This document shows positions 43,432-54,657 of a stretch of DNA of 64,000 bases, piece by piece. Source of the DNA: Betaproteobacteria bacterium. GTDB taxonomy: Bacteria > Pseudomonadota > Gammaproteobacteria > Burkholderiales > JACQAP01. Each line of letters begins with the position of its first letter. The first letter of the stretch is position 1. The DNA is taken from assembly GCA_016194905.1 (NCBI GenBank), contig JACQAP010000005.1, forward strand, positions 205,114-269,113, written 5' to 3'. Made by a program: the position numbers and the translations under genes. Under the pieces are notes generated by a model. The model had not been told where the DNA came from, searched no databases, and saw only the letters and a program-made list of their open reading frames with translations.

Positions 43432-43953
43432 TCACTTTTTCTTCTTGAGGTCGAAAAAATAGACATATTCTTTGGTCCAATCTGGCCGCAGGAAGATCAC
43501 GCGGCCTTCTTCCAGCGTCATAGCGCCACGGCATACAGCGCGACAAACTGACGCCTCTAGCTGATCCTTGAACTTCGCCGCCCACTGCCCATTACGCGGC
43601 TCTGGCCACAGATTGCGATGGTCGGTAGGGTGCCCGCCGAGGCATAGCGGGACCAAATGATCCTCTTCGTAGTCCGACGCTTTGCTGGATAGGCGCATTT
43701 CGCGCATCTGCTGCGCCTTCAGCCGGTTAGTGTATGAAGTCGGCGGCCGGACGGTGGCCGTCCAGCCGGGAACGCATATGGTCTGAGCAATATTGTCTGC
43801 CGTGACGTATTGACTGATGGCGCCTGGCGTTCGATCGCGATCCGGAACAAAGAATGCGGGCCCATGAGAATCGAGTTCGCTCTGGTCCGCAGAAGCGAAC
43901 TCCATCGCTGCAATGCACAGCAACCCAAGAAATCGACCCTGTGGCATTCGCAT
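43432..43953 (-). CDS. Secreted HNH-type nuclease-like protein
   Basis: Signal peptide MRMPQGRFLGLLCIAAMEFASA. HNH-like core EEDHLVPLCLGGHPTDHRNLWPEP. Confidence 0.6.
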   Translation of the reverse strand: MRMPQGRFLGLLCIAAMEFASADQSELDSHGPAFFVPDRDRTPGAISQYVTADNIAQTICVPGWTATVRPPTSYTNRLKAQQMREMRLSSKASDYEEDHLVPLCLGGHPTDHRNLWPEPRNGQWAAKFKDQLEASVCRAVCRGAMTLEEGRVIFLRPDWTKEYVYFFDLKKKK

Positions 43954-44780: not shown

Positions 44781-44868
44781 TGATGACCAATCATCTTCAC
44801 CTCGCCTTGCAGATGGGCGATGTGAACTCTCGGCGGGCATGCAGAACCTGTCGTTTCGATATACCCGC
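44781..44868 (+). pseudogene. Internal fragment of a RAYT/IS200-like transposase gene
   Basis: Hand alignment to 50282..50370 of the intact gene (HUH region SNHLHLALQ.GD...SAGMQNLSFRYTR): about nine mismatches and one 1-nt indel. Confidence 0.75.
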
Positions 44869-44913: not shown

Positions 44914-47868
44914 CTACCCTTGAATTGAAGGCTCCCTTGCGAGCTTCATGCGAAGCAGGTCCATTGCGCCGTTCTTAGCTAACAGAGCGAAGTCAACTCC
45001 CAAGACCTCCCGGGTAAAACGCTGATCGAGTTCTTTACGCACGTCGTCTACATCCATTTCATTTATGGGACGCAACGCTTTATCGCGCATCTGATCAAAA
45101 ATATTAACGGCGGCGGAAAGCTGCTTCGCGTTCAGCTTGGTGACATCAAGGATGACGAAATCTTCAAGCGCCGATTTACCAATGTTTCCTCTGCCCGCTT
45201 GCTGCTTGTTTGCCTGCCACCAATGCAAGAGCAGTCCGAGCGACGTGTTCGCCCATAGCACGAGTGCTTTCTCATGGTCTTCAGACGCCATCTGTATGGA
45301 GGCCCAAGCACGGCCGCCGATACTGCGCCTCGGCGTGAACTGCATCCCTGTGGATTGGCTGTTGAATCGAAAGTTGATGTTGAAGTGACAATGTGAAGCG
45401 GTCGCAGCCACTCGCGGAATTCTTTCTGCCACCAAATCTTCCTCCGCTGGGGTTGCGCCCATGCGAGCAATGCCTTCGCTATCCGCATCAAACGCCATAG
45501 TTCGCTCACGCGCAGCATCGTGTGACCACAATACGGGATAGGTTGGCACCGCCCCTGGAGTTACTGGCGACACCGTGAATGGCCCACGAACACCACCGGA
45601 TGAAGTAGATCCTTCAATATCACTGTGATAGGGGCCGATTTTACCTACGGCCCCAACCGCTGCGATCGGGATGCCCAATGCTTGCGATTTCTGCATGCCC
45701 GGGAGCCAGACTTTCCCATTATTCCGCAACTGAAAAGCACTCTGCGCCAATGATAGATCGGCTACGCGCGACAGGTACCACCCGTCCGTTGCTGAGATGG
45801 GCGCATCCAACACATGGCCAATCACGTCGCTTCCAAACATAATTGCGGCGCCGCCGACTGGCCCATCTTCCAGACGTCTGAGGGCCTTCGTGTCAATTAA
45901 GCGTCTCACCTCGCGCGCGACACCAGCGCCAAGCATTGGAAACGCGGGGCGCTCCTTCAGAACGACAAAGGTAGCCCTATCGCTGGGTGTTCCTGACTTG
46001 CTCCCAACGACTAAGCATTCGCCCATTCCCGTGTCGGCCGAGAAAGACATGTCACCGCTGCCGCCGCCTGTGATGGAAACCAAAACCAAGTCGGTGTAGT
46101 TCTTCACCAAAAGTGCGCGCGACTTCTCCCAAGCCTCGCCAGACATAAGGCTCAGCGGCATTACCAATGCAAGGGTCCCGTTCTTCGTGAGTTTTCGATC
46201 TGCCAGTACAAGGAAGATCGACGCCTCGCCAGCATTGCCGTGCGCGCTGGTGCCATCAGTAAGGCGCTTGGTGGCAGCACCCATCAAGCGTTGTTCTTCC
46301 ACAGTTGAACTGAATGCCGCAAACATCGGATTAGGAACACCGATCTTTGAGCTTTCATGTCCTGTAGCGCGCGTAAATGGGGGATTCATAAAAACCATGT
46401 CGAATGAAGCGTGCGGAAGGTGCGACCAAATCTCCTTTTCCTTTTCGCCCATACCTTCGGCGGCATGGGCGGTGATGGCGAGAATGCCGAATGTTCGTTG
46501 CGGGTCAAGAAGATCCAGCGAACCAAGCGCAATACCGCCGTCCGGTTGCTTGCCATAGGCGACAGTCATGATCGAGCTTTGGGTGTATTTGACTGTCGGA
46601 TGTGCACCGGAAAGCATTGATGCGGTGAGGTGCGCTGCTGCTGGTAGGACATCACATCCGATCAGGCCATGCGCCATCATTTCAGGATGTAGTGCTTCCG
46701 AGTCCCCACCCGCCAACTCGTGCAATTGTCCGATGCGTTGATACGCAGTCGACAATAGGGTGCCCGTGCCACAGGCAAAGTCCGCAACTCGCAGCTTCTG
46801 AACATCCTTTGAGTTGGACCAAGAACCGCCTGACGCCGGTTTATTCGGTGCGATCGCCAATCCCACAAGGAGCGCAGCCGAAGCTGGTGTCGTGTAATAC
46901 GCGGCGAGGAATTTACGGTCGGCGATAAGTCGCTGGAACACTGACCCGGTCAGGTCATGCGACCGCATGAGCTGATTCTTGAGCAAATTGTCAGCCGTAA
47001 CCGCAAGACTCTCTATGATCGCCTTGCTGCTCGCGGCCGGTAGCACCTCAAGGATGCGGCGCGCGATGTCAAAGATGGGCCAATAATTGACCTTAAGAAT
47101 CTTGCGCCACTCAGCCAGGACTGAGGTTTTGGTGAGCGCTCCAGTCGTACCGCGCAGTTCATCTAACGATCTGACGCTGGCAAGTTCACCAGGCCCACCC
47201 GCTAAACTCTCCTGAAAAACGAAGGCATTGGCAAGGATGGTTGCCGCCATGCGACGGGTTTGCTCCGATTCTTCTTGCCGGAGCTCTTCACAAATCTTCT
47301 TGATTGCTCCCGATCCCGGCGGTGCGACTTCGCCAAGGAGACCGGCTACCTCGCTAACACCGCTCACGAGTTGGTCAGCCGCGGCGTCAATTACTTCTGG
47401 TGGAACCGAAGCCGACTGCACAAGTATTGAGACATCCGCCACCGTTCCACGTACCCACCCGGCGTGAGGATAGCGCGTGAAGTTGGATGAATCGCTGCCG
47501 GTGAAAAGCGCCATTTCCAGATCGTCGGCGTTTTCCAGTTCGGAAGCTAACTTCTTGCCAGATTTGGTTCGTAGCCGGAGCGGTAGGCGAATCGCCACTA
47601 CTGAAAGTATCGTGCGGCCCGTATGGCGCAGATGTTTTCCGAGCCTTGCTAGTGCGTCCGCCTCTACAGTTGGAGCAGGTAGTACCTCGGTTTCAACTAC
47701 TACCGGGGAAACGTTTGGTTCGATGACCAATATGTCTGGGCGCTCGCTGGTGCCCTTCAACATTCCTGTATTCTCGGAACTAACCACCTTGTCTGACCGC
47801 CACATTTGACGCTTAGTACGTAAGACTTCCGCGAGAGCGTCGTTGATGGTGTGTTCGGTCACCGGCAT
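44914..47868 (-). CDS. Large fused N6-adenine DNA methyltransferase / putative restriction enzyme (type IIG-like)
   Basis: 984 aa. SAM motif I VADFACGTGTLL and catalytic motif IV MNPPFTRA. The N-terminal ~130 aa carry a PD-(D/E)xK-like string RPDILVIEP..PVVVETEV. Long C-terminal region consistent with a target-recognition domain. Confidence 0.75.
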   Translation of the reverse strand: MPVTEHTINDALAEVLRTKRQMWRSDKVVSSENTGMLKGTSERPDILVIEPNVSPVVVETEVLPAPTVEADALARLGKHLRHTGRTILSVVAIRLPLRLRTKSGKKLASELENADDLEMALFTGSDSSNFTRYPHAGWVRGTVADVSILVQSASVPPEVIDAAADQLVSGVSEVAGLLGEVAPPGSGAIKKICEELRQEESEQTRRMAATILANAFVFQESLAGGPGELASVRSLDELRGTTGALTKTSVLAEWRKILKVNYWPIFDIARRILEVLPAASSKAIIESLAVTADNLLKNQLMRSHDLTGSVFQRLIADRKFLAAYYTTPASAALLVGLAIAPNKPASGGSWSNSKDVQKLRVADFACGTGTLLSTAYQRIGQLHELAGGDSEALHPEMMAHGLIGCDVLPAAAHLTASMLSGAHPTVKYTQSSIMTVAYGKQPDGGIALGSLDLLDPQRTFGILAITAHAAEGMGEKEKEIWSHLPHASFDMVFMNPPFTRATGHESSKIGVPNPMFAAFSSTVEEQRLMGAATKRLTDGTSAHGNAGEASIFLVLADRKLTKNGTLALVMPLSLMSGEAWEKSRALLVKNYTDLVLVSITGGGSGDMSFSADTGMGECLVVGSKSGTPSDRATFVVLKERPAFPMLGAGVAREVRRLIDTKALRRLEDGPVGGAAIMFGSDVIGHVLDAPISATDGWYLSRVADLSLAQSAFQLRNNGKVWLPGMQKSQALGIPIAAVGAVGKIGPYHSDIEGSTSSGGVRGPFTVSPVTPGAVPTYPVLWSHDAARERTMAFDADSEGIARMGATPAEEDLVAERIPRVAATASHCHFNINFRFNSQSTGMQFTPRRSIGGRAWASIQMASEDHEKALVLWANTSLGLLLHWWQANKQQAGRGNIGKSALEDFVILDVTKLNAKQLSAAVNIFDQMRDKALRPINEMDVDDVRKELDQRFTREVLGVDFALLAKNGAMDLLRMKLAREPSIQG

Positions 47869-48141: not shown

Positions 48142-48714
48142 TCACACCGGGAGCAATGCGTTGGCTGACTTGAACGCGGCCTCGAACATGTCGAGGGTAG
48201 CTGCCAAATACTTGCCCAGAAGTTCAAGCGTAAGCTGTTTTAATGCCTGCCCCTTGATATCGGATGGAAGGTCAAAGCTCTCCACGAGGTTCTTTGCAAG
48301 TGTGGCCTCGACGACTGGAACACTGACATAGAGATAGCAACCATTTGCGCTTTTTGAATAGCTCTTGGAAAGGACAATCTCAGGTTTTGAAAGGACATTG
48401 CTTCCGAACTTTTCTTTTATTGCATTGAGTTCAGCCTCGTCTAGCGCAAAAGTTGCCTCGATAACTTTGGCGTGCATCCGCCGCTTCGTCTCGATGTCCT
48501 GCTGGTAGTTCTCCACTTCAGACCTTGGATAGTCATCTGTTACGTCAAAGTTTCCGTCGCTAGCAACAATGGGATTGAGCCGATACAGGGCTTGCAAGAT
48601 AGCCGTCTTGCCCGCTTCATTCTTACCTACCAGACACGCAACCCGATCCACCTCAAACGGATTCGAGTCCCACACAGACTTGAATTCCCGAACATGAACC
48701 CCGCGCAATTTCAT
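48142..48714 (-). pseudogene. N-terminal fragment of an ABC/OLD-type P-loop ATPase (truncated)
   Basis: 190 aa with Walker A LVGKNEAGKTAILQAL but no Walker B or signature motif. Relatives that I recall are several hundred residues longer. GGGAGG before the ATG. Confidence 0.55.
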
Positions 48715-48825: not shown

Positions 48826-50034
48826 TCATGCGCGCCGGCTTGTGCGATGAGCTGTTTCTTCCGACTCTTCAGCAACTTTTCGGAAGGGGTGTGGAATTGA
48901 CTTCTCTGGTTCTTTAGTTGCATTACGCAGGTAATCGGTTACGCTCTTGCGCAATCTAGGGGCCCACTCTGGCTCACGAATATCGTAAATGATTACCCTG
49001 AGATGCCTAAGGTCGAAAGGGACGTCGCCAACCTCGGAAGCTGTGAAGACAACTGGCTTACGTGCCGCATGAGCTAAACCAAGTTCGTAGAAGACATTCG
49101 GATTCTTTCCAGATAGATCTGCTAGCAATAGTTTCGATTTCTCAATCTGCTCCCAAATCTGTTCAACCACACTGCCAGTTGTAAATAGCTCATCGGCGCG
49201 TACCGGTTCGAATCCCGCTTCCTTGATGGCAGGCATATAGATTTCTTGATAATAGCGATCAAACCACGCGCCGAAGGGCATCATTACAAAACAGGTGTCC
49301 AAGAACTCTCGCACGCGAGGCTCCTTGGAAACTATCGGACTCGGTACCTTTTCCGGCGGAGTCGGAGTAATTGCGGTGTCCGCCGAACCGGCTCTTTGGT
49401 CAGACGGCACAGTCGTCGGAGTAAAAGCTCGGAGAAATTTGAGGTTTTCGAGAAAAATTTTGGCGAACTGCTCTACGCGATCACGAGGAATATTAAACTC
49501 TCGAGTAAGTGTATTGAGAAAGAACTCGTCCTCAGGTATGCGCTTACCACTATAGAATTTCTCAACCCCTTCGAAATCCTTCACGTTTCGAAAGACTCGT
49601 AGGAGTGCCTCAGACCGCTGACTGGGCGAACTTGGAGCAACGACATCTTGGCCTAACTGCGAGAGATGAATCGTTCCGGTAGCGCCAGTACCCGTGACTA
49701 AACCATATTGGTTGGCGGAGCGAAGGAGATCGAGAAATCTCCAATCAGACGATTGGCGAAAACCTACGGCGACCGCGATTTCCTGTGCAGGCATTGGATT
49801 ACCCGCGTTCTTCTCCTCGATCGCTTTAGCAAGTGCAATAGCATCTTCAAGACTATTTTTTGGAAAAGTCCAGGGCTTTCCCTTGGCAGTAGTCAACAAC
49901 TCCGCGGCTTTTTTCTGCTTCCCTTTCTTAGCTTTCTTCTTGGTTTTCTTTTTTGGGAGATCAGCCTTTTTCGGGACATCACCCTTTTTTAAGGCATCGG
50001 CCTTTGGCTTGGTTGTTTCCTTATCTTCTGCCAT
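48826..50034 (-). CDS. Lys-rich N-terminal tail + helical (wHTH-like) region + nucleoside 2-deoxyribosyltransferase-like (TIR/SLOG-related Rossmannoid) domain protein
   Basis: 402 aa. N-terminus KKADLPKKKTKKKAKKGKQKK. C-terminus CFVMMPFG...YQEIYMPAIKEAGFEPVRAD...LLLADLSGKNPNVFYELGLAHAARKPVVF matches the pattern I associate with Nuc_deoxyribosyltransferase-like domains. AAGGAG RBS. Confidence 0.6.
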   Translation of the reverse strand: MAEDKETTKPKADALKKGDVPKKADLPKKKTKKKAKKGKQKKAAELLTTAKGKPWTFPKNSLEDAIALAKAIEEKNAGNPMPAQEIAVAVGFRQSSDWRFLDLLRSANQYGLVTGTGATGTIHLSQLGQDVVAPSSPSQRSEALLRVFRNVKDFEGVEKFYSGKRIPEDEFFLNTLTREFNIPRDRVEQFAKIFLENLKFLRAFTPTTVPSDQRAGSADTAITPTPPEKVPSPIVSKEPRVREFLDTCFVMMPFGAWFDRYYQEIYMPAIKEAGFEPVRADELFTTGSVVEQIWEQIEKSKLLLADLSGKNPNVFYELGLAHAARKPVVFTASEVGDVPFDLRHLRVIIYDIREPEWAPRLRKSVTDYLRNATKEPEKSIPHPFRKVAEESEETAHRTSRRA

Positions 50035-50077
50035 TCTCGAACTCCTTTGGGTGACTTTTAGTGCGTCCAGGGTCAGG

Positions 50078-51126
50078 CCTGCATAATTGGATAATCTTCA
50101 TGTATCCTCCGTCCTATGGCTCGCAAACCCCGCCTGCACGTTCCCGGTGGTCTGTATCACGTCATCTTACGCGGCAACGCCGGGCAGGATGTGTTCTTCT
50201 CTGCGGGTGACCGGCGCTTCTTCTATGAATTGCTCGCCGAAGGCGTAGTCCGCTTCGGCTACCGGGTGCACGCCTTCTGCCTGATGAGCAATCATCTCCA
50301 CCTCGCTTTGCAGGTGGGCGATCTTGCACTGTCGGCGGGCATGCAGAACCTGTCGTTTCGCTACACCCGCTATCTCAATACGCGACTCAAGCGGTCAGGA
50401 CATGTATTCCAGGGACGCTTCAAGGCTTTCCTGGTGGATCAGGATCGCTATGGGTTGGCATTGGTGCGCTATCTCCATTTGAATGCGGTGCGCGCGAGAA
50501 TGGTCAGGCAACCCCGTGCCTACGCCTGGAGCAGTCACCGCGCTTACCTCGGCGAAGAGGACTTGCCCTGGCTCACGACGGATTGGGTGCTGGGACAATT
50601 CGGCGAACGGGTCGAGCCGGCCCGGCAGCGCTTTGCCGCCTTTGTCGACGCCGGTGCTCGCGACGGCCATTCGGAGGTGTTCTACGGCGGGCAGGCGGAT
50701 GGCCGGGTGGTCGGGGAGGAAGCTTTCCTGAAGAAGGTGCTGAAGGTGCTCCCCAAGCGAGAAGCGAAGCGCAAAGCCCCATCGCTCAGGCAGATCGTGG
50801 CCTATGTGTGCGACGGTTACGGACTCACGGAAGGGGCGCTCAAGGCGCCGGGCAAGGGCCGGCAAACGGCGCAGGCGCGCGCACTCATCGGCTGGCTTGC
50901 GGTCCGGTTTCGTTCGTGCACGCTTGCAGAAGTCGCCGAGCATTTCTCGCGCTCCCCTTCCACGCTAAGCCATCTTGTCGCCAACCTGGAGAAGCTTTCG
51001 CACAGTTCCGGCCAACCCGCCGATGCGCTGCGAAAACATCTATTCACACTGCAGGTCTGACATCCTTTTACTTTTCTTTCTTTTACTGAGGCCTAGATCT
51101 CACTTCCGTTTATGCAATTATGCAGG
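50078..51126 (+). mobile_element. RAYT unit: Y1 transposase gene bracketed by a 17-bp imperfect inverted repeat
   Basis: cctgcataattgGataa (50078..50094) is the reverse complement of ttatGcaattatgcagg (51110..51126) with 16/17 matching. Confidence 0.55.
50116..51060 (+). CDS. REP-associated tyrosine transposase-like protein (IS200/IS605 Y1 HUH family) with C-terminal DnaA-C-like HTH
   Basis: LYHVILRGN, HUH motif SNHLHLAL, RYLHLNAVRARMV. C-terminal RALIGWLAVRFRSCTLAEVAEHFSRSPSTLSH resembles the DnaA domain IV-like HTH seen in this transposase family. Confidence 0.8.
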   Translation: MARKPRLHVPGGLYHVILRGNAGQDVFFSAGDRRFFYELLAEGVVRFGYRVHAFCLMSNHLHLALQVGDLALSAGMQNLSFRYTRYLNTRLKRSGHVFQGRFKAFLVDQDRYGLALVRYLHLNAVRARMVRQPRAYAWSSHRAYLGEEDLPWLTTDWVLGQFGERVEPARQRFAAFVDAGARDGHSEVFYGGQADGRVVGEEAFLKKVLKVLPKREAKRKAPSLRQIVAYVCDGYGLTEGALKAPGKGRQTAQARALIGWLAVRFRSCTLAEVAEHFSRSPSTLSHLVANLEKLSHSSGQPADALRKHLFTLQV

Positions 51127-51182: not shown

Positions 51183-52598
51183 TTAGCGGTGCCCCCTGTC
51201 GTACACCGAAAAGACGTCCGCCACTGGACTGACTCCTGCCTCGCCTTCGACGGTGCAGCGATACACGCCGGCGGGCAACGGGGGTACCTCGGCGCGCAGC
51301 CATCCTTCCTTACTCGGCGGAAATGCGATACGTGCCACTTCGGCGCCAGAATCGGCCTCGACGACCGTCGCATAAAGCGCCGGCGAAGCCGCGGAGTCGG
51401 CCAGAACACGTAACGACACCGACTCGTCATTCCAGTATGCATCCTCCAGGTGCAGTGCGACCTTGACCGGGCCAGCCGATATCGCCCGGTATTGCCACGA
51501 CGACAGATCGAGATCGAGCGCCGTGATCGCATCGCACACGTGGTGCTGGACGGCGGAGGCGTTCTGCAACGAGGCATGGCAGGTCGAGACATAGGCCTCG
51601 CGGCCCGCATTGGATAGCTCGACCGGCGTAGCGGAGATTCGCGGCACCGTGCCGTCGCCTCCGAGGTCGTGCCCCGCATGCTCGCTGGCGAACTCGATGT
51701 TTTCGCCACCGGTCATGCGCGCCGATTGGAGCGTTTCCTGATGCGTCCCGACCACCGGAATTACGCGATAACGCCCACGGCGATAGATGTCGTCGTCGAG
51801 ATGACGATCGATGGCCTGTCGGATTTCGGCGTGGAAATCGCGGGCGCCGAGCACCTTCCCGGCTTCGACATGGGCGATCGCGGGGCCATCGCTCAGATGT
51901 ACGAGTTGACCGTCGACTGTCTGCAGACAGGGATAGGTGGGCAGCAATTGATAGACTGAGGGGAGCGAGCGCACAAACGCCGACAGATCGACAATGCCGA
52001 AAGGTCCCTTGCGGATGCCCTCGACCAGCGTGCGCAGCGCATTGACCGAGCCGCGAAAGGGCGTGCCGAAGGTGACGAGCGCCTTTGCATCCGGCCAGCC
52101 CTCAAGCGCTTCGAGGAAGTAGCGGGCAACGAGCCCGCCCATCGAATGCGCAACGATGATGAGCTTCGCCCCGTTGTTACCGGAAGATTCGCGCCAGCGT
52201 CGGAGCCACTCCCGGCTCACGCGCTGGAGCTGCTTCGCCGCGACGCGGTTATCACGCCGCCAATCGTACGGGAACTCGAAGTAGTTGACACCGTGCTCGA
52301 CATCGAAGGTGCGACGGAGCGACTCGGTCAAGCTCGAGTACCCGTCGATCTTCCACAGATACGGGATCAGGTGGAGATCGGGCAGGATGCGTGTGGCTTC
52401 GACATCGTCGACGCGCTGTTCTGGGTCGGACGAATCCGCGGTGAGACGGAGCGCGCCGATGCTGTCACCGAGCGTGGTCAAGGCGTGCAATCCCGCGCCG
52501 GCAGAAAATCCCCACGCGTCACGGCCCTGCCGCTTCAATTCGCTGCCGAGGATCCCGGGTATCACCACCAGCACATCGGGCATCGGCTTTCGGATCAT
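51183..52598 (-). CDS. LCAT/PGAP1-like alpha/beta hydrolase (putative lipase/esterase) with C-terminal beta-rich domain
   Basis: 471 aa. N-terminal VVIPGILGSEL, YDWRRD, nucleophile elbow IVAHSMGGLVARYF. 38 nt downstream of the cyclase-caspase gene on the same strand. Confidence 0.7.
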   Translation of the reverse strand: MIRKPMPDVLVVIPGILGSELKRQGRDAWGFSAGAGLHALTTLGDSIGALRLTADSSDPEQRVDDVEATRILPDLHLIPYLWKIDGYSSLTESLRRTFDVEHGVNYFEFPYDWRRDNRVAAKQLQRVSREWLRRWRESSGNNGAKLIIVAHSMGGLVARYFLEALEGWPDAKALVTFGTPFRGSVNALRTLVEGIRKGPFGIVDLSAFVRSLPSVYQLLPTYPCLQTVDGQLVHLSDGPAIAHVEAGKVLGARDFHAEIRQAIDRHLDDDIYRRGRYRVIPVVGTHQETLQSARMTGGENIEFASEHAGHDLGGDGTVPRISATPVELSNAGREAYVSTCHASLQNASAVQHHVCDAITALDLDLSSWQYRAISAGPVKVALHLEDAYWNDESVSLRVLADSAASPALYATVVEADSGAEVARIAFPPSKEGWLRAEVPPLPAGVYRCTVEGEAGVSPVADVFSVYDRGHR

Positions 52599-52635: not shown

Positions 52636-54657
52636 TTACGCTTGCGCTCGCGGCGGAAGAAACAGGAACTCGCCCTCGCCGTCGAGCTTGGCGTATTGAG
52701 GCGTCTGCCGGTTGTCGGATTCCGCCAGCACGCGCTTCAGGATGTAATCCGCGAGCTTGAGCGCAGTTAACCCGGCGCCGTCGGGGTCCGCGAAGCCCTC
52801 GAGGCCTTTCAGGAAACTTCGCGTGAAAATGCCGTGGCCGCCATCCTCGACCGCTTTCTGGTTCCCTGTGCCTGCGGTGAGGAGTTGCACCACTGGTTCC
52901 TGGGTCAGCCCGGTCAGGTCCATCTCCACACCGGACGGGGCGGCGTCGCGCTTCGCCGCATAACCGGAGAAACAGCTGTCGAGCACGAACAGGATGTGCT
53001 TGGCCGGCAGGCTCTTTCCGTGACGCACGAAATCCACCATCGGCAGGGAGCTCAGCGGAAGATTGGCCGGATCCGCGTCATAGGGCAGAAGGTAACCTTC
53101 CTCTCCTTTGCGGTGCTTCAGGACCTGGCCGTGCAGCGCGAAGAATACCAGCAGCCGGTCCTCTCGTTGCGTGGTCTCGACCTTGCCGAGGATCGAGCGC
53201 AAGATCCCATCTTTGGTCGCCTTTTCGTTGACGAGGAGTTCGATGCGCTCCGCGGGAAAACCCGCTCTGGGGAGGGCTTCCGCCACCGCCTCGGCGTCGG
53301 CGACCGCATAGCTCAACCGGGCCACGGATGGCGATTGGTAGGTGTCGACGCCGACCACGATCGCCCATGAATTCTGGTAGTAGGCGCCCAAGCCCTTGGC
53401 AACGTCGGGATGCGTCTTCCGGCTCTTCACGGTGACGACGGCCTCGCCTGCAGCCGGCCGCAATCGGCGCACGTGATAGCGCTTGTATACGACGCCCATC
53501 GGCTGATCGGACTTGCGCATGTCGTACGTCTGCGGATCGTCGACTTCGGCGACAATGTCGCGTGCCACGTAGTACGTGTTCTGGTCGACCAGGATCCGTT
53601 TACCGCCGCGCGCGTCCTGCTCGAACGCCGCGGCCAGGTTCACCACATTGCCGAGCGCTGTGAAGTCCTTGATCTGCCCTCCGCCAATGGACCCGATGAT
53701 CACGTCGCCGGTCGCGATTCCAAAGCCAATGTCGAGAAAGCCCAGATCCTCGTTGCGTTTGCGGTTCCACTGGTTGCGCAGGTCCACGAACCCCGCGATG
53801 ATGCTGAAGGCGCAGCGCAGCGACCGCTCCTCCGTGCCGGTCTTGCCGCGGAACAGCGCCAATACCCCGTCGCCGAGGAACTTGTTGACGAACCCGTCGA
53901 ATTTGACTACCTGCGCCGCCAGCAACGTCAGGAACTCGTTCAAGTGCCCCGCTATTTCCTTCGGATCACCGAGCGTCTGACTCAACCGGCTGAATCCCCG
54001 CATGTCGGCGAACATCACCGTCATGCGCTCGTGATGCGCCGGGGCGGCGAGCTCGCCAAGCAGATCGCCGGTCTTGCGCCTGTGGGCTGCGGACGTAAAT
54101 AGGCCCTTGTGCGCGAGCAGATCGCGAATGTGGCGCGCATTGCGAATCGCGATGGCAGCGTGGCCGGCGAAATGCTCCAGTAGGCGCAAGTCGCGCGAGG
54201 TGTAGTCGCCCGACGCCTTGTTTAGAAGCTGGACGACGCCGCTCCGAAGTGACTCGATGGCAAGCGGCACGCAGATCATCGATTTGGTGCTGTAATTGGT
54301 CTGCTGATCGACGCCTTTGAAATGGTCCGTCCCCCTCACCACGGAGCGCTCGATCAGCGATTCGCCGGTCTTGTACACGCGGCCCGCAATGGAACCCATC
54401 GGGACACGGTCAGGGCCGAATTCGCCGAATTGCGTGAGCACGTCCTGCGCCTTGGGACCGGTTGCGGCGGCGAAATACATGCCATCGCGCTCGGCGTCAT
54501 GGAGTATGACGGAGCCGGACTCCGAGCTGGTCAGGTTTCCCGCTCGGGTTAGGATCGCCGCGACCAGATCGCCGTAGTCGATCTCGGAACTCAGCTCACG
54601 GGCGTTCTCGACCAGGGAGAGCAGGTCGGACCGGCTGAGCTCGTCATCGTCTGCCAT
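52636..54657 (-). CDS. GAF domain - class III nucleotide cyclase - caspase-like (peptidase C14) fusion protein
   Basis: 673 aa. GAF-like aa ~15-175. Cyclase aa ~210-385 (MTVMFADMRGFS, KFLGDGVLALF, GIATGDVIIGSIGG, GNVVNLAA). Caspase-like aa ~425-660 (WAIVVGVDTY, FFALHG, FVLDSCFSG). Confidence 0.8.
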   Translation of the reverse strand: MADDDELSRSDLLSLVENARELSSEIDYGDLVAAILTRAGNLTSSESGSVILHDAERDGMYFAAATGPKAQDVLTQFGEFGPDRVPMGSIAGRVYKTGESLIERSVVRGTDHFKGVDQQTNYSTKSMICVPLAIESLRSGVVQLLNKASGDYTSRDLRLLEHFAGHAAIAIRNARHIRDLLAHKGLFTSAAHRRKTGDLLGELAAPAHHERMTVMFADMRGFSRLSQTLGDPKEIAGHLNEFLTLLAAQVVKFDGFVNKFLGDGVLALFRGKTGTEERSLRCAFSIIAGFVDLRNQWNRKRNEDLGFLDIGFGIATGDVIIGSIGGGQIKDFTALGNVVNLAAAFEQDARGGKRILVDQNTYYVARDIVAEVDDPQTYDMRKSDQPMGVVYKRYHVRRLRPAAGEAVVTVKSRKTHPDVAKGLGAYYQNSWAIVVGVDTYQSPSVARLSYAVADAEAVAEALPRAGFPAERIELLVNEKATKDGILRSILGKVETTQREDRLLVFFALHGQVLKHRKGEEGYLLPYDADPANLPLSSLPMVDFVRHGKSLPAKHILFVLDSCFSGYAAKRDAAPSGVEMDLTGLTQEPVVQLLTAGTGNQKAVEDGGHGIFTRSFLKGLEGFADPDGAGLTALKLADYILKRVLAESDNRQTPQYAKLDGEGEFLFLPPRAQA

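Follow-up and report, generated by a model that had tools for sequence, protein, structure and literature searches.

Gene organization and domain architecture

We analysed a 64,000-nucleotide stretch of DNA (the window) from a Betaproteobacteria bacterium (assembly GCA_016194905.1, contig JACQAP010000005.1, positions 205,114 to 269,113 of the forward strand) and describe here a gene on its minus strand whose product joins a winged helix-turn-helix (wHTH) to a domain resembling nucleoside 2-deoxyribosyltransferases (NDTs). We tentatively favour the reading that this wHTH/NDT-like protein is a standalone, horizontally mobile single-protein sensor-effector in conflicts, probably anti-phage and of the abortive-infection type. 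The open reading frame (ORF) is a real gene, because a betaproteobacterial metagenome-assembled genome (MAG) encodes an identical protein (P0001, HY067_02435; contig of 384 kb) and 1783 homologues were found at E<=1e-3 among the candidates examined. All the peptides quoted in the original prediction, which had been made from the sequence alone, were found in the ORF (KKADLPKKKTKKKAKKGKQKK, CFVMMPFG, YMPAIKEAGFEPVRAD, LLLADLSGKNPNVFYELGLAHAARKPVVF and PFDLRHLRVIIY). The AlphaFold2 model of the full-length protein, computed from a 91-sequence alignment (A2) spanning two subfamilies, had a mean predicted local distance difference test score (pLDDT) of 81 and showed four clearly distinct parts. 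The features of the gene are as follows.

50042..50048 (-): predicted Shine-Dalgarno-like sequence AAAGGAG, 7 nt 5' of the ATG, read from the sequence
48826..50034 (-): complete ORF in the ORF list, from ATG, 402 aa plus stop; the wHTH/NDT-like protein
49885..50034 (-): Lys-rich basic disordered tail, aa 1-50 (composition; pLDDT 42-51)
49630..49872 (-): winged helix-turn-helix, aa 55-135 (AlphaFold2 pLDDT ~97; weak Foldseek matches)
49420..49629 (-): four-helix bundle packed against the wHTH, aa 136-205 (AlphaFold2 helices)
49303..49419 (-): variable disordered Pro/Ser/Thr-rich linker, aa 206-244 (pLDDT ~41; alignments A1 and A2)
48895..49302 (-): Rossmannoid NDT/TIR-like (DrHyd-class) domain, aa 245-380 (Pfam, PADLOC, Foldseek and PHROGs)
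49084..49086 (-): GAA codon of the glutamate predicted to be catalytic, Glu317 in NPNVFYELGLAHA (invariant in 91 sequences; profile alignment)
48829..48894 (-): low-confidence, mostly unconserved C-terminal tail, aa 381-402 (pLDDT 46-64)

A conserved KSIPxPFR motif, with P376 invariant in the 91 sequences, closes the catalytic domain just before aa 381-402. No model in Pfam, NCBIfam, PADLOC or PHROGs describes the whole protein, and NCBIfam returned 0 matches for it. The wHTH/NDT-like family is genuine, abundant, unannotated and strongly conserved.

The C-terminal domain is of the NDT/TIR class

The C-terminal domain (C-domain, aa 245-380) was modelled as a beta-alpha-beta Rossmannoid fold (pLDDT ~90), with strands at 247-251, 276-279, 302-306, 328-332 and 347-349 and helices at 256-272, 289-299 and 312-323. 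Foldseek placed NDTs first (E 4e-4), followed by TIR-APAZ of SPARTA, the TIR domain of SfSTING, BcmB and DNPH1; the NDT, DNPH1 and BcmB matches had a probability of 1.00 and E values of 4e-4 to 1e-2. Cyanobacterial and Leishmania NDTs and the TIR domains of SPARTA, TIR-STING, MyD88 and TRAM were among the matches, and identity in the structural NDT and TIR matches was 12-18%.

Profile searches pointed to the same class. Pfam PF05014 (Nuc_deoxyrib_tr) matched the window protein with E 0.0044 and 17.6 bits, below the 28.8-bit gathering threshold. It was matched weakly by all members of the family (91/91, best E 1.5e-5), no other family being matched consistently, and some proteins of the sister subfamily carry a precomputed PF05014 match. 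Membership is at the level of the NDT/DrHyd-TIR superfamily, not of the PF05014 family proper. The PADLOC model PDLC00733 (Pycsar 'Effector TIR') matched with E 3.7e-10 over aa 259-346 (88 residues); Pfam CAP12-PCTIR_TIR (PF10137) was unmatched. Searched against PDB sequences, the family profile found Rcl/DNPH1 (E 0.0046) with AKVLVAELTGKNPNVFYELGLAHALKKPVV aligned to ADVVVAEVTQPSLGVGYELGRAVALGKPIL, so that E317 stood opposite the Glu of YELG in Rcl/DNPH1 (NVFYELGLAHA over GVGYELGRAVA); the same search with the single window protein returned only noise. The Glu at this position is the catalytic nucleophile in NDT and DNPH1. In the AlphaFold2 model, the glutamate motif NVFYELG sits after the third core strand, and R279, D281, N313, Y316, E317, H322, D341 and R346 are invariant in the 91 sequences, although these come from two subfamilies only ~33% identical.

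Pfam, PADLOC, the family profile and Foldseek therefore agree on the NDT/TIR-type fold recognized by the original prediction, and neither the profile nor the structure searches led to an unrelated fold. The models and alignments show a C-terminus of the TIR/NDT (DrHyd) Rossmannoid class with a glutamate at the predicted catalytic position, that of DNPH1 and NDT.

Such similarities would also be expected of an enzyme that sanitizes nucleotide pools, or of a DNA-directed N-glycosidase, in which a DNPH1-like domain, hydrolysing (deoxy)nucleotides that are modified or damaged, is recruited to DNA by the tail and the winged helix and possibly acts on DNA bases. DNPH1/Rcl, the best sequence-level relatives in the PDB, are N-hydrolases of hmdUMP and dNMPs; the best structural matches include NDTs and the CMP N-glycosidase BcmB; and in Pfam every family member is nearest to PF05014. 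The PADLOC TIR-effector model (E 3.7e-10), on the other hand, scored far better than the Pfam NDT model (E 0.0044), and we know of no NDT-fold enzyme that acts on polymeric DNA. Together with the distribution and gene contexts described below, this leads us to regard a sanitation or repair enzyme as unlikely.

A winged helix, a helical bundle and a basic tail form the N-terminus

The N-domain (aa 55-205) had a pLDDT of ~97 in the full-length model; modelled alone, it had a pLDDT of 88.6 and a predicted template modelling score (pTM) of 0.81. In the predicted winged helix, helices 62-76, 83-90, 98-110 and 126-132 are accompanied by a wing strand at 121-124; conserved motifs are WTFPKN, IEEKNAGNP and SANQYGLV, and P58, G78, S106 and P134 are invariant columns. 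The bundle is made up of helices 137-149, 152-161, 170-180 and 184-202, with no wing in aa 137-202. What had been read by eye as two similar wHTH-like segments is accordingly modelled as one winged helix plus a four-helix bundle, between which hhalign detected no similarity; an internal duplication of the wHTH was rejected (aa 55-135 versus aa 136-205, probability 0.65%). The N-domain was unmatched by any Pfam, NCBIfam or PHROG model, and tblastn gave no match to it in the plasmid or phage collections. Its weak Foldseek matches were MarR regulators, winged-helix dimerisation domains of O-methyltransferases, ROQ and SelB.

The tail (aa 1-50) contains 18 Lys and has a net charge of +11. It is Lys-rich as originally described, but 'almost pure' K/A/P/D overstates a content of 66%. 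The tail varies in sequence and length but is basic throughout, its net charge having a median of +6 among the 112 close homologues and +9 among the 112 sister-subfamily proteins; because charge is retained in both subfamilies despite the varying sequence, the basic property itself is under selection. The likeness to histone H1 suggested earlier is compositional only, as no linker-histone or other histone family in Pfam was matched. Linker histone H1 combines a globular H15 winged helix with long Lys-rich tails, whereas the tail of the window protein is short (~45 aa) and unconserved in sequence. DNA binding by the N-terminus is predicted from this basic tail and the generic winged helix.

The succession of an HTH and a Rossmannoid ligand domain recalls RpiR-type regulators (Foldseek matches to NanR and MurR, with a root-mean-square deviation of 13-16 A), and the TIR-DrHyd-SLOG class has non-catalytic sensor versions (PMC9503650). 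The protein might by this token be a nucleoid-associated protein or a one-component regulator whose winged helix and basic tail bind the chromosome. Its NDT-like domain would then be no immune effector; it would modulate the binding, chiefly by sensing nucleotides or NAD derivatives or else through slow catalysis. We consider this doubtful: the catalytic-type Glu and the surrounding motif are invariant, and the N-domain has no significant match to a DNA-binding family.

The gene is strongly conserved but patchily distributed

The full-length architecture is found in two abundant subfamilies comprising thousands of sequences. In the window's subfamily, the best 120 of the 1783 homologues were all 70-100% identical, named 'hypothetical' and without a Pfam match. 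The sister subfamily, ~33% identical, gave 2880 matches and includes two cultured Bradyrhizobium strains, whose proteins carry the NCBI name 'nucleoside 2-deoxyribosyltransferase'. In a survey of one representative genome per GTDB species, the window's subfamily was present at 41 loci, every one of them in a MAG (41/41), with identities of 57-83%. The hosts were Alpha-, Beta-, Gamma- and Deltaproteobacteria, as well as Acidobacteriota, Planctomycetota, Bacteroidota, Deinococcales, Ignavibacteriota, Taylorbacteria of the Candidate Phyla Radiation (CPR), Hydrogenedentales and Binatia.

Members were 57-87% identical across ~10 phyla, and identity was incongruent with taxonomy. At conserved residues, 30-41% of codons were identical (52% in the closest pair), and the synonymous divergence (dS, NG86) was undefined through saturation in 402 of 406 pairs; one close pair gave a nonsynonymous divergence (dN) of 0.076 and a dS of 1.80, that is, dN/dS ~0.04. 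Since synonymous sites are saturated, the high identity results from strong purifying selection, and recent spread was rejected as its cause. In 34 of 35 loci, the gene had a lower GC content than the flanking DNA (median difference, 8 points), and its GC partially tracked that of the host (r 0.65), which suggests that it was acquired horizontally more than once and then partly ameliorated. What surprises most is this EF-Tu-like conservation of a patchy, horizontally moving gene, found mostly in MAGs.

Mobile-element ends and a conserved leader or trailer were rejected, because 800-bp flanks compared by blastn and tblastx were similar only between close hosts. In five loci (L003, L007, L049, L134 and L135), the upstream intergenic region was unusually long (470-1050 bp). 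By blastn and tblastx, the upstream regions of homologues showed no sequence conservation between phyla.

These data bear on both alternatives in opposite ways. Very strong purifying selection is more typical of core cellular proteins and speaks for a regulator or nucleoid protein, and slow evolution equally fits a metabolic or repair enzyme. A distribution that is patchy, mainly in MAGs, incongruent with taxonomy and accompanied by foreign-looking GC is, by contrast, not what one would expect of a nucleoid protein, nor of a regulator bound to a regulon, and, being patchy and driven by horizontal gene transfer, argues against a repair role.

The conservation would find a different explanation if the protein were a chromatin-resident NDT-fold enzyme acting on nucleic acid, either excising or exchanging (modified) bases in DNA or ADP-ribosylating DNA. 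The basic tail and the winged helix would then deliver the active site to the polymer, and the EF-Tu-like conservation would reflect an invariant substrate, DNA. If true, the protein would be the first enzyme with an NDT/DrHyd fold to act on DNA, but we hold the idea to be highly improbable.

The gene stands alone in homologous loci

Contexts of homologues were examined in 8 loci with full precomputed gene tables and in 37 species-representative loci; in the latter, the two nearest genes on each side (130 neighbours) were scanned with Pfam and PADLOC, and the top 25 of 113 Pfam families were listed. A conserved operon partner was rejected by all-against-all blastp of flanking ORFs from 40 loci; the sole cluster spanning 5 loci was artefactual, produced by GAF, cyclase and caspase domains that matched different proteins. 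No neighbour family occurred in more than 2 of the 37 loci, and the flanks held no conserved small ORFs or flanking DNA. In ~45 homologous loci, the gene stands alone, without a conserved partner.

Defence-type genes were nonetheless met among the 130 neighbours: MzaE (two), type I restriction-modification, Hma, AbiEi, caspase (two), TIR_2 (two), AIPR (two), mad2, PDC-S34 and PDC-S66 (two), along with IS elements. Over the 8 and the 37 loci together, neighbours also included HEPN, IS110 (two) and IS21. Caspase-domain genes adjoin the homologue in L023 and L024. Near sister-subfamily genes, there were AbiJ, ImmA/IrrE and toxin-antitoxin genes. As a rough, uncontrolled estimate, a defence-type gene lies within two genes in a fifth to a quarter of the loci. 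Other neighbours were ThiC, Hsp70, ribonucleotide reductase, PBP2/RodA and urease.

For the regulator, a gene that stands alone, often amid housekeeping genes, is a favourable sign; the lack of a conserved neighbouring target gene or conserved upstream DNA is an unfavourable one. For a sanitation or repair enzyme, the contexts are adverse, as the gene was never in a salvage or repair operon among the loci examined. No nucleotide-salvage operon was seen in the 8 full tables or among the nearest genes and top 25 Pfam families of the 37 loci, and the only nucleotide-metabolism neighbour was the one ribonucleotide reductase (1 of 37 loci). Homologues are thus not housed mainly in salvage operons; the reverse would have spoken against the original prediction.

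The gene lies in a low-GC island near defence-like genes

In the window, the gene lies within a low-GC island at ~43.2-50.1 kb; GC content is 0.48-0.51 in the gene and in the one downstream of it, versus 0.60-0.65 for the surrounding genome. The nearby genes are as follows.

43432-43953 (-): 173-aa ORF at the left edge of the island, with a signal-peptide-like N-terminus
44914-47868 (-): 984-aa protein with N6-adenine methyltransferase-like central region and weak Eco57I, MAD2, PglX and type IIG matches
48142-48714 (-): 190-aa ATPase ORF, matching only the N-terminal 70-100 residues (Walker A region) of AAA_15, GajA, OLD and AriA
50116-51060 (+): REP-associated tyrosine transposase (RAYT; Y1_Tnp E 1.4e-9, NCBIfam REP_Tyr_transpos E 1e-14) with a fused DnaA C-terminal HTH
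51183-52598 (-): 471-aa LCAT/PGAP1-like lipase
52636-54657 (-): 673-aa protein with GAF, class III nucleotide cyclase and caspase (Peptidase_C14) domains (PADLOC PycC E 1.2e-19), directly upstream of the lipase

The 190-aa ATPase ORF starts 111 bp downstream of the gene, ends 270 bp before the next gene and has a GC content of ~0.48, like the gene itself; it looks like the truncated remnant of a Gabija/OLD-type defence ATPase. One possibility for the 984-aa protein (44914-47868) is a restriction-modification or MADS-like enzyme in a single chain; a PD-(D/E)xK-like motif was noticed by eye in its N-terminus (PDILVIEPNVSPVVVETEV). In the 173-aa ORF (43432-43953), an HNH-like motif was likewise noticed by eye (DYEEDHLVPLCLGGHPTDHRNLW), and no Pfam match was found at E<=0.1. 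On the other side, the cyclase-caspase and lipase genes could form a separate conflict module.

The RAYT gene (50116-51060) is divergent from the wHTH/NDT-like gene, 81 bp apart. In L045 and L046, both from Acidobacteriota, the homologue likewise has a RAYT-like gene beside it or close by. Two copies of a 46-nt direct repeat (91% identical) are present at 44823-44868 and 50325-50370, 5502 bp apart; the latter copy lies inside the RAYT gene and encodes ALSAGMQNLSFRYTR, and the former is an isolated fragment. The repeats flank most of the low-GC island, including the methyltransferase-like gene, the ATPase fragment and the wHTH/NDT-like gene. This arrangement suggests that the segment arrived or was rearranged through recombination at a RAYT copy.

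With such neighbours, the protein could be thought to be part of a multi-gene system with a partner in the window, namely a Pycsar-like cyclase, a retron-type system or a methyltransferase/ATPase (MADS-like) cassette. At 2.6 kb upstream, the same strand encodes a PycC-like cyclase domain (E 1.2e-19), and the wHTH/NDT-like protein itself matches a Pycsar TIR-effector model; the GajA-like ATPase fragment 111 bp downstream is followed by the methyltransferase-like gene with its weak mad2 match, and a neighbour of one homologue also matches mad2. Yet the ATPase ORF is only a 190-aa fragment, transposase and lipase genes separate the cyclase from the gene, the protein has no domain binding cyclic nucleotides (cNMP), and neither a reverse transcriptase in the window nor an Rfam match at 40-58 kb was found. 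At the homologous loci, as described above, no neighbour family exceeds 2 of 37 loci and small ORFs and flanking DNA are unconserved. Since none of these partners is conserved, dependence on them is very unlikely. The 'defence-like cassette' seen by the original prediction exists in the window, where the N6-adenine methyltransferase-like gene, the GajA/AAA_15-like fragment and the PycC-like cyclase-caspase gene lie close by, but is not conserved at homologues.

Relatives of the C-domain occur in conflict contexts

The C-domain alone is far more widespread, matching 25,353 clusters at 50% identity at E<=1e-3 and 10,268 at E<=1e-10. In sequence, its nearest relatives by a wide margin are phrog_3634 (E 5.4e-29) and numerous proteins of 220-300 aa with the NDT-like domain first, 45-55% identical to the C-domain (>100 cluster representatives). 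This set (phrog_3634 and the 220-300-aa proteins) shares the motifs CFVxMPFG, PAIxxAG, VRAD, NPNVFYELGLAHA and DVPFDLR with the window protein; its members lack the wHTH N-domain and the basic tail, have variable C-terminal coiled-coil or helical extensions and are in many cases encoded by prophages. Elsewhere, the domain is fused to TIR_2, an XRE-type HTH, a receiver domain (REC), PP2C or a PMT glycosyltransferase.

In Streptococcus and Staphylococcus phages, C-domain relatives are strand-opposed genes in lysogeny or replication modules: in Streptococcus phage Javan37, the gene lies between the repressor and cro, and in Staphylococcus phage SA13, it lies on the opposite strand within the replication module. 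Relatives were also present in 170 IMG/VR viral stretches. In a Rhizobium plasmid, a gene combining the NDT-like domain with MAP3K_TRAF_bd/TPR-S adjoins genes for a SLATT protein and two TIR proteins. More distant C-domain relatives thus occupy classic conflict contexts.

Proposed function

A DNA-tethered NAD- or nucleotide-processing effector or sensor, as originally suggested, remains the most plausible interpretation. As a standalone conflict sensor-effector, the wHTH/NDT-like protein would be held on nucleic acid by its basic tail and winged-helix/helical N-domain, or would use them to sense foreign nucleic acid, foreign protein or a phage product. Sensing would gather the catalytic domains, as in PycTIR, SPARTA, TIR-STING and the retron-Eco1 effector; such gathering is proposed because the active forms of NDT and TIR enzymes are dimers or oligomers. 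It would switch the enzyme on, and the C-domain, by cleaving an N-glycosidic bond, would deplete NAD+ or nucleotides. NAD+ would be the most likely substrate, as for PycTIR, SPARTA TIR and NIR/DUF4062 effectors, because the nearest characterized model is that of the PycTIR NADase and because the NDT-like, TIR and DUF4062 effectors of immunity either are NADases or deplete adenine nucleotides; the alternative candidate, suggested by DNPH1 and BcmB, is a (deoxy)nucleotide.

Several observations weigh against a role in conflict. Typical defence genes evolve much faster than this family (dN/dS ~0.04, 57-87% identity across phyla), and many loci have purely housekeeping neighbours. The enrichment of defence neighbours comes from a rough, uncontrolled count. 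PLSDB, INPHARED and IMG/VR yielded the C-domain alone and no full-length copy, and no PADLOC single-gene candidate model matched the whole protein. As for the proposed DNA tether, the best PDB matches of the winged helix were weak (Foldseek E>=0.05), and the predicted wing segment has no Lys or Arg in the window's subfamily. The slow evolution and the many housekeeping neighbourhoods keep alive the regulator or nucleoid protein and the sanitation enzyme as competing explanations.

If the conflict sensor-effector is what the family encodes, it would be an abundant single-gene immune effector family with thousands of sequences, mostly in MAGs from soil, peat and sediment, and its N-terminus would be a new sensor module; the family currently has no annotation. 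An apparent defence gene would then evolve as slowly as a core housekeeping protein while crossing phyla. The wider C-domain set (>25,000 clusters at 50% identity, including prophage genes of Streptococcus and Staphylococcus) is equally uncharacterized, and a biochemical result for a single member would annotate all of it. Because the sister subfamily occurs in cultured Bradyrhizobium, the question is directly testable.

Comparison with known systems

NDT and DNPH1/Rcl (the PF05014 superfamily) share with the window protein the Rossmannoid fold and the Glu at the YELG position, but the window protein differs in its sub-threshold Pfam score, its lack of a salvage context and its extra N-terminal modules. 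The ASK-type plasmid proteins, in which an NDT-like domain is joined to TPR-S/MAP3K_TRAF_bd, are 35-37% identical to it in the shared domain; they have the NDT-like domain first, whereas the window protein matches neither MAP3K_TRAF_bd nor TPR-S and has the opposite order and another sensor.

NIR (DUF4062) systems such as Vulcan are single proteins combining an NADase, for which the catalytic Glu is required, with a sensor (bioRxiv 10.64898/2026.09.04.749371). The logic of a small TIR/NDT-like domain fused to a sensor in one polypeptide is shared, but the window protein has no DUF4062 match. The NIR NADase domain has defence neighbours in 20% of cases versus a 3.9% background (same reference), a share resembling our rough estimate for the window's family, the latter being uncontrolled.

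Retron type II-A effectors (e.g. that of Retron-Eco1/Ec86) combine an NDT-like domain with a winged-helix DNA-binding domain (PMC7736814), so that the domain combination, thought unusual in the original prediction, has a precedent. The effector binds the multicopy single-stranded DNA (msDNA) of the retron, and its NDT-like domains dimerise (PMC7736814; bioRxiv 10.1101/2023.08.16.553469). Both domain types are common to the window protein, but the order is reversed, with the wHTH N-terminal here, and the basic tail is an extra difference. Retron effector structures were not among the best 50 Foldseek matches. No reverse transcriptase was found among the neighbours in the window, nor was any reverse transcriptase family recurrent among the 130 neighbours of homologues, and Rfam, retron RNA families included, gave no match at 40-58 kb.

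PycTIR is an NADase with an N-terminal sensor and a C-terminal catalytic domain that is activated by ligand-induced oligomerisation (PMC11224242). It provides the best-scoring characterized model for the C-domain, and its layout, an N-terminal sensor followed by a TIR-like N-glycosidase, is shared. PycTIR has a cyclic-nucleotide-binding domain (CNBD); the window protein matches no cNMP-binding family and has the novel wHTH/helical domain and the basic tail instead. Pycsar also includes a partner cyclase, whereas the PycC-like domain of the window (52636-54657) is two genes away and no cyclase recurs near homologues; a cyclase domain was found within 5 kb of the homologue in L028 only. Membership in Pycsar or retron systems was rejected, there being no CNBD, conserved cyclase, reverse transcriptase or msr/msd RNA. 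By analogy, the nearest functional counterparts of the wHTH/NDT-like protein among known systems would be PycTIR and the effectors of type II-A retrons.

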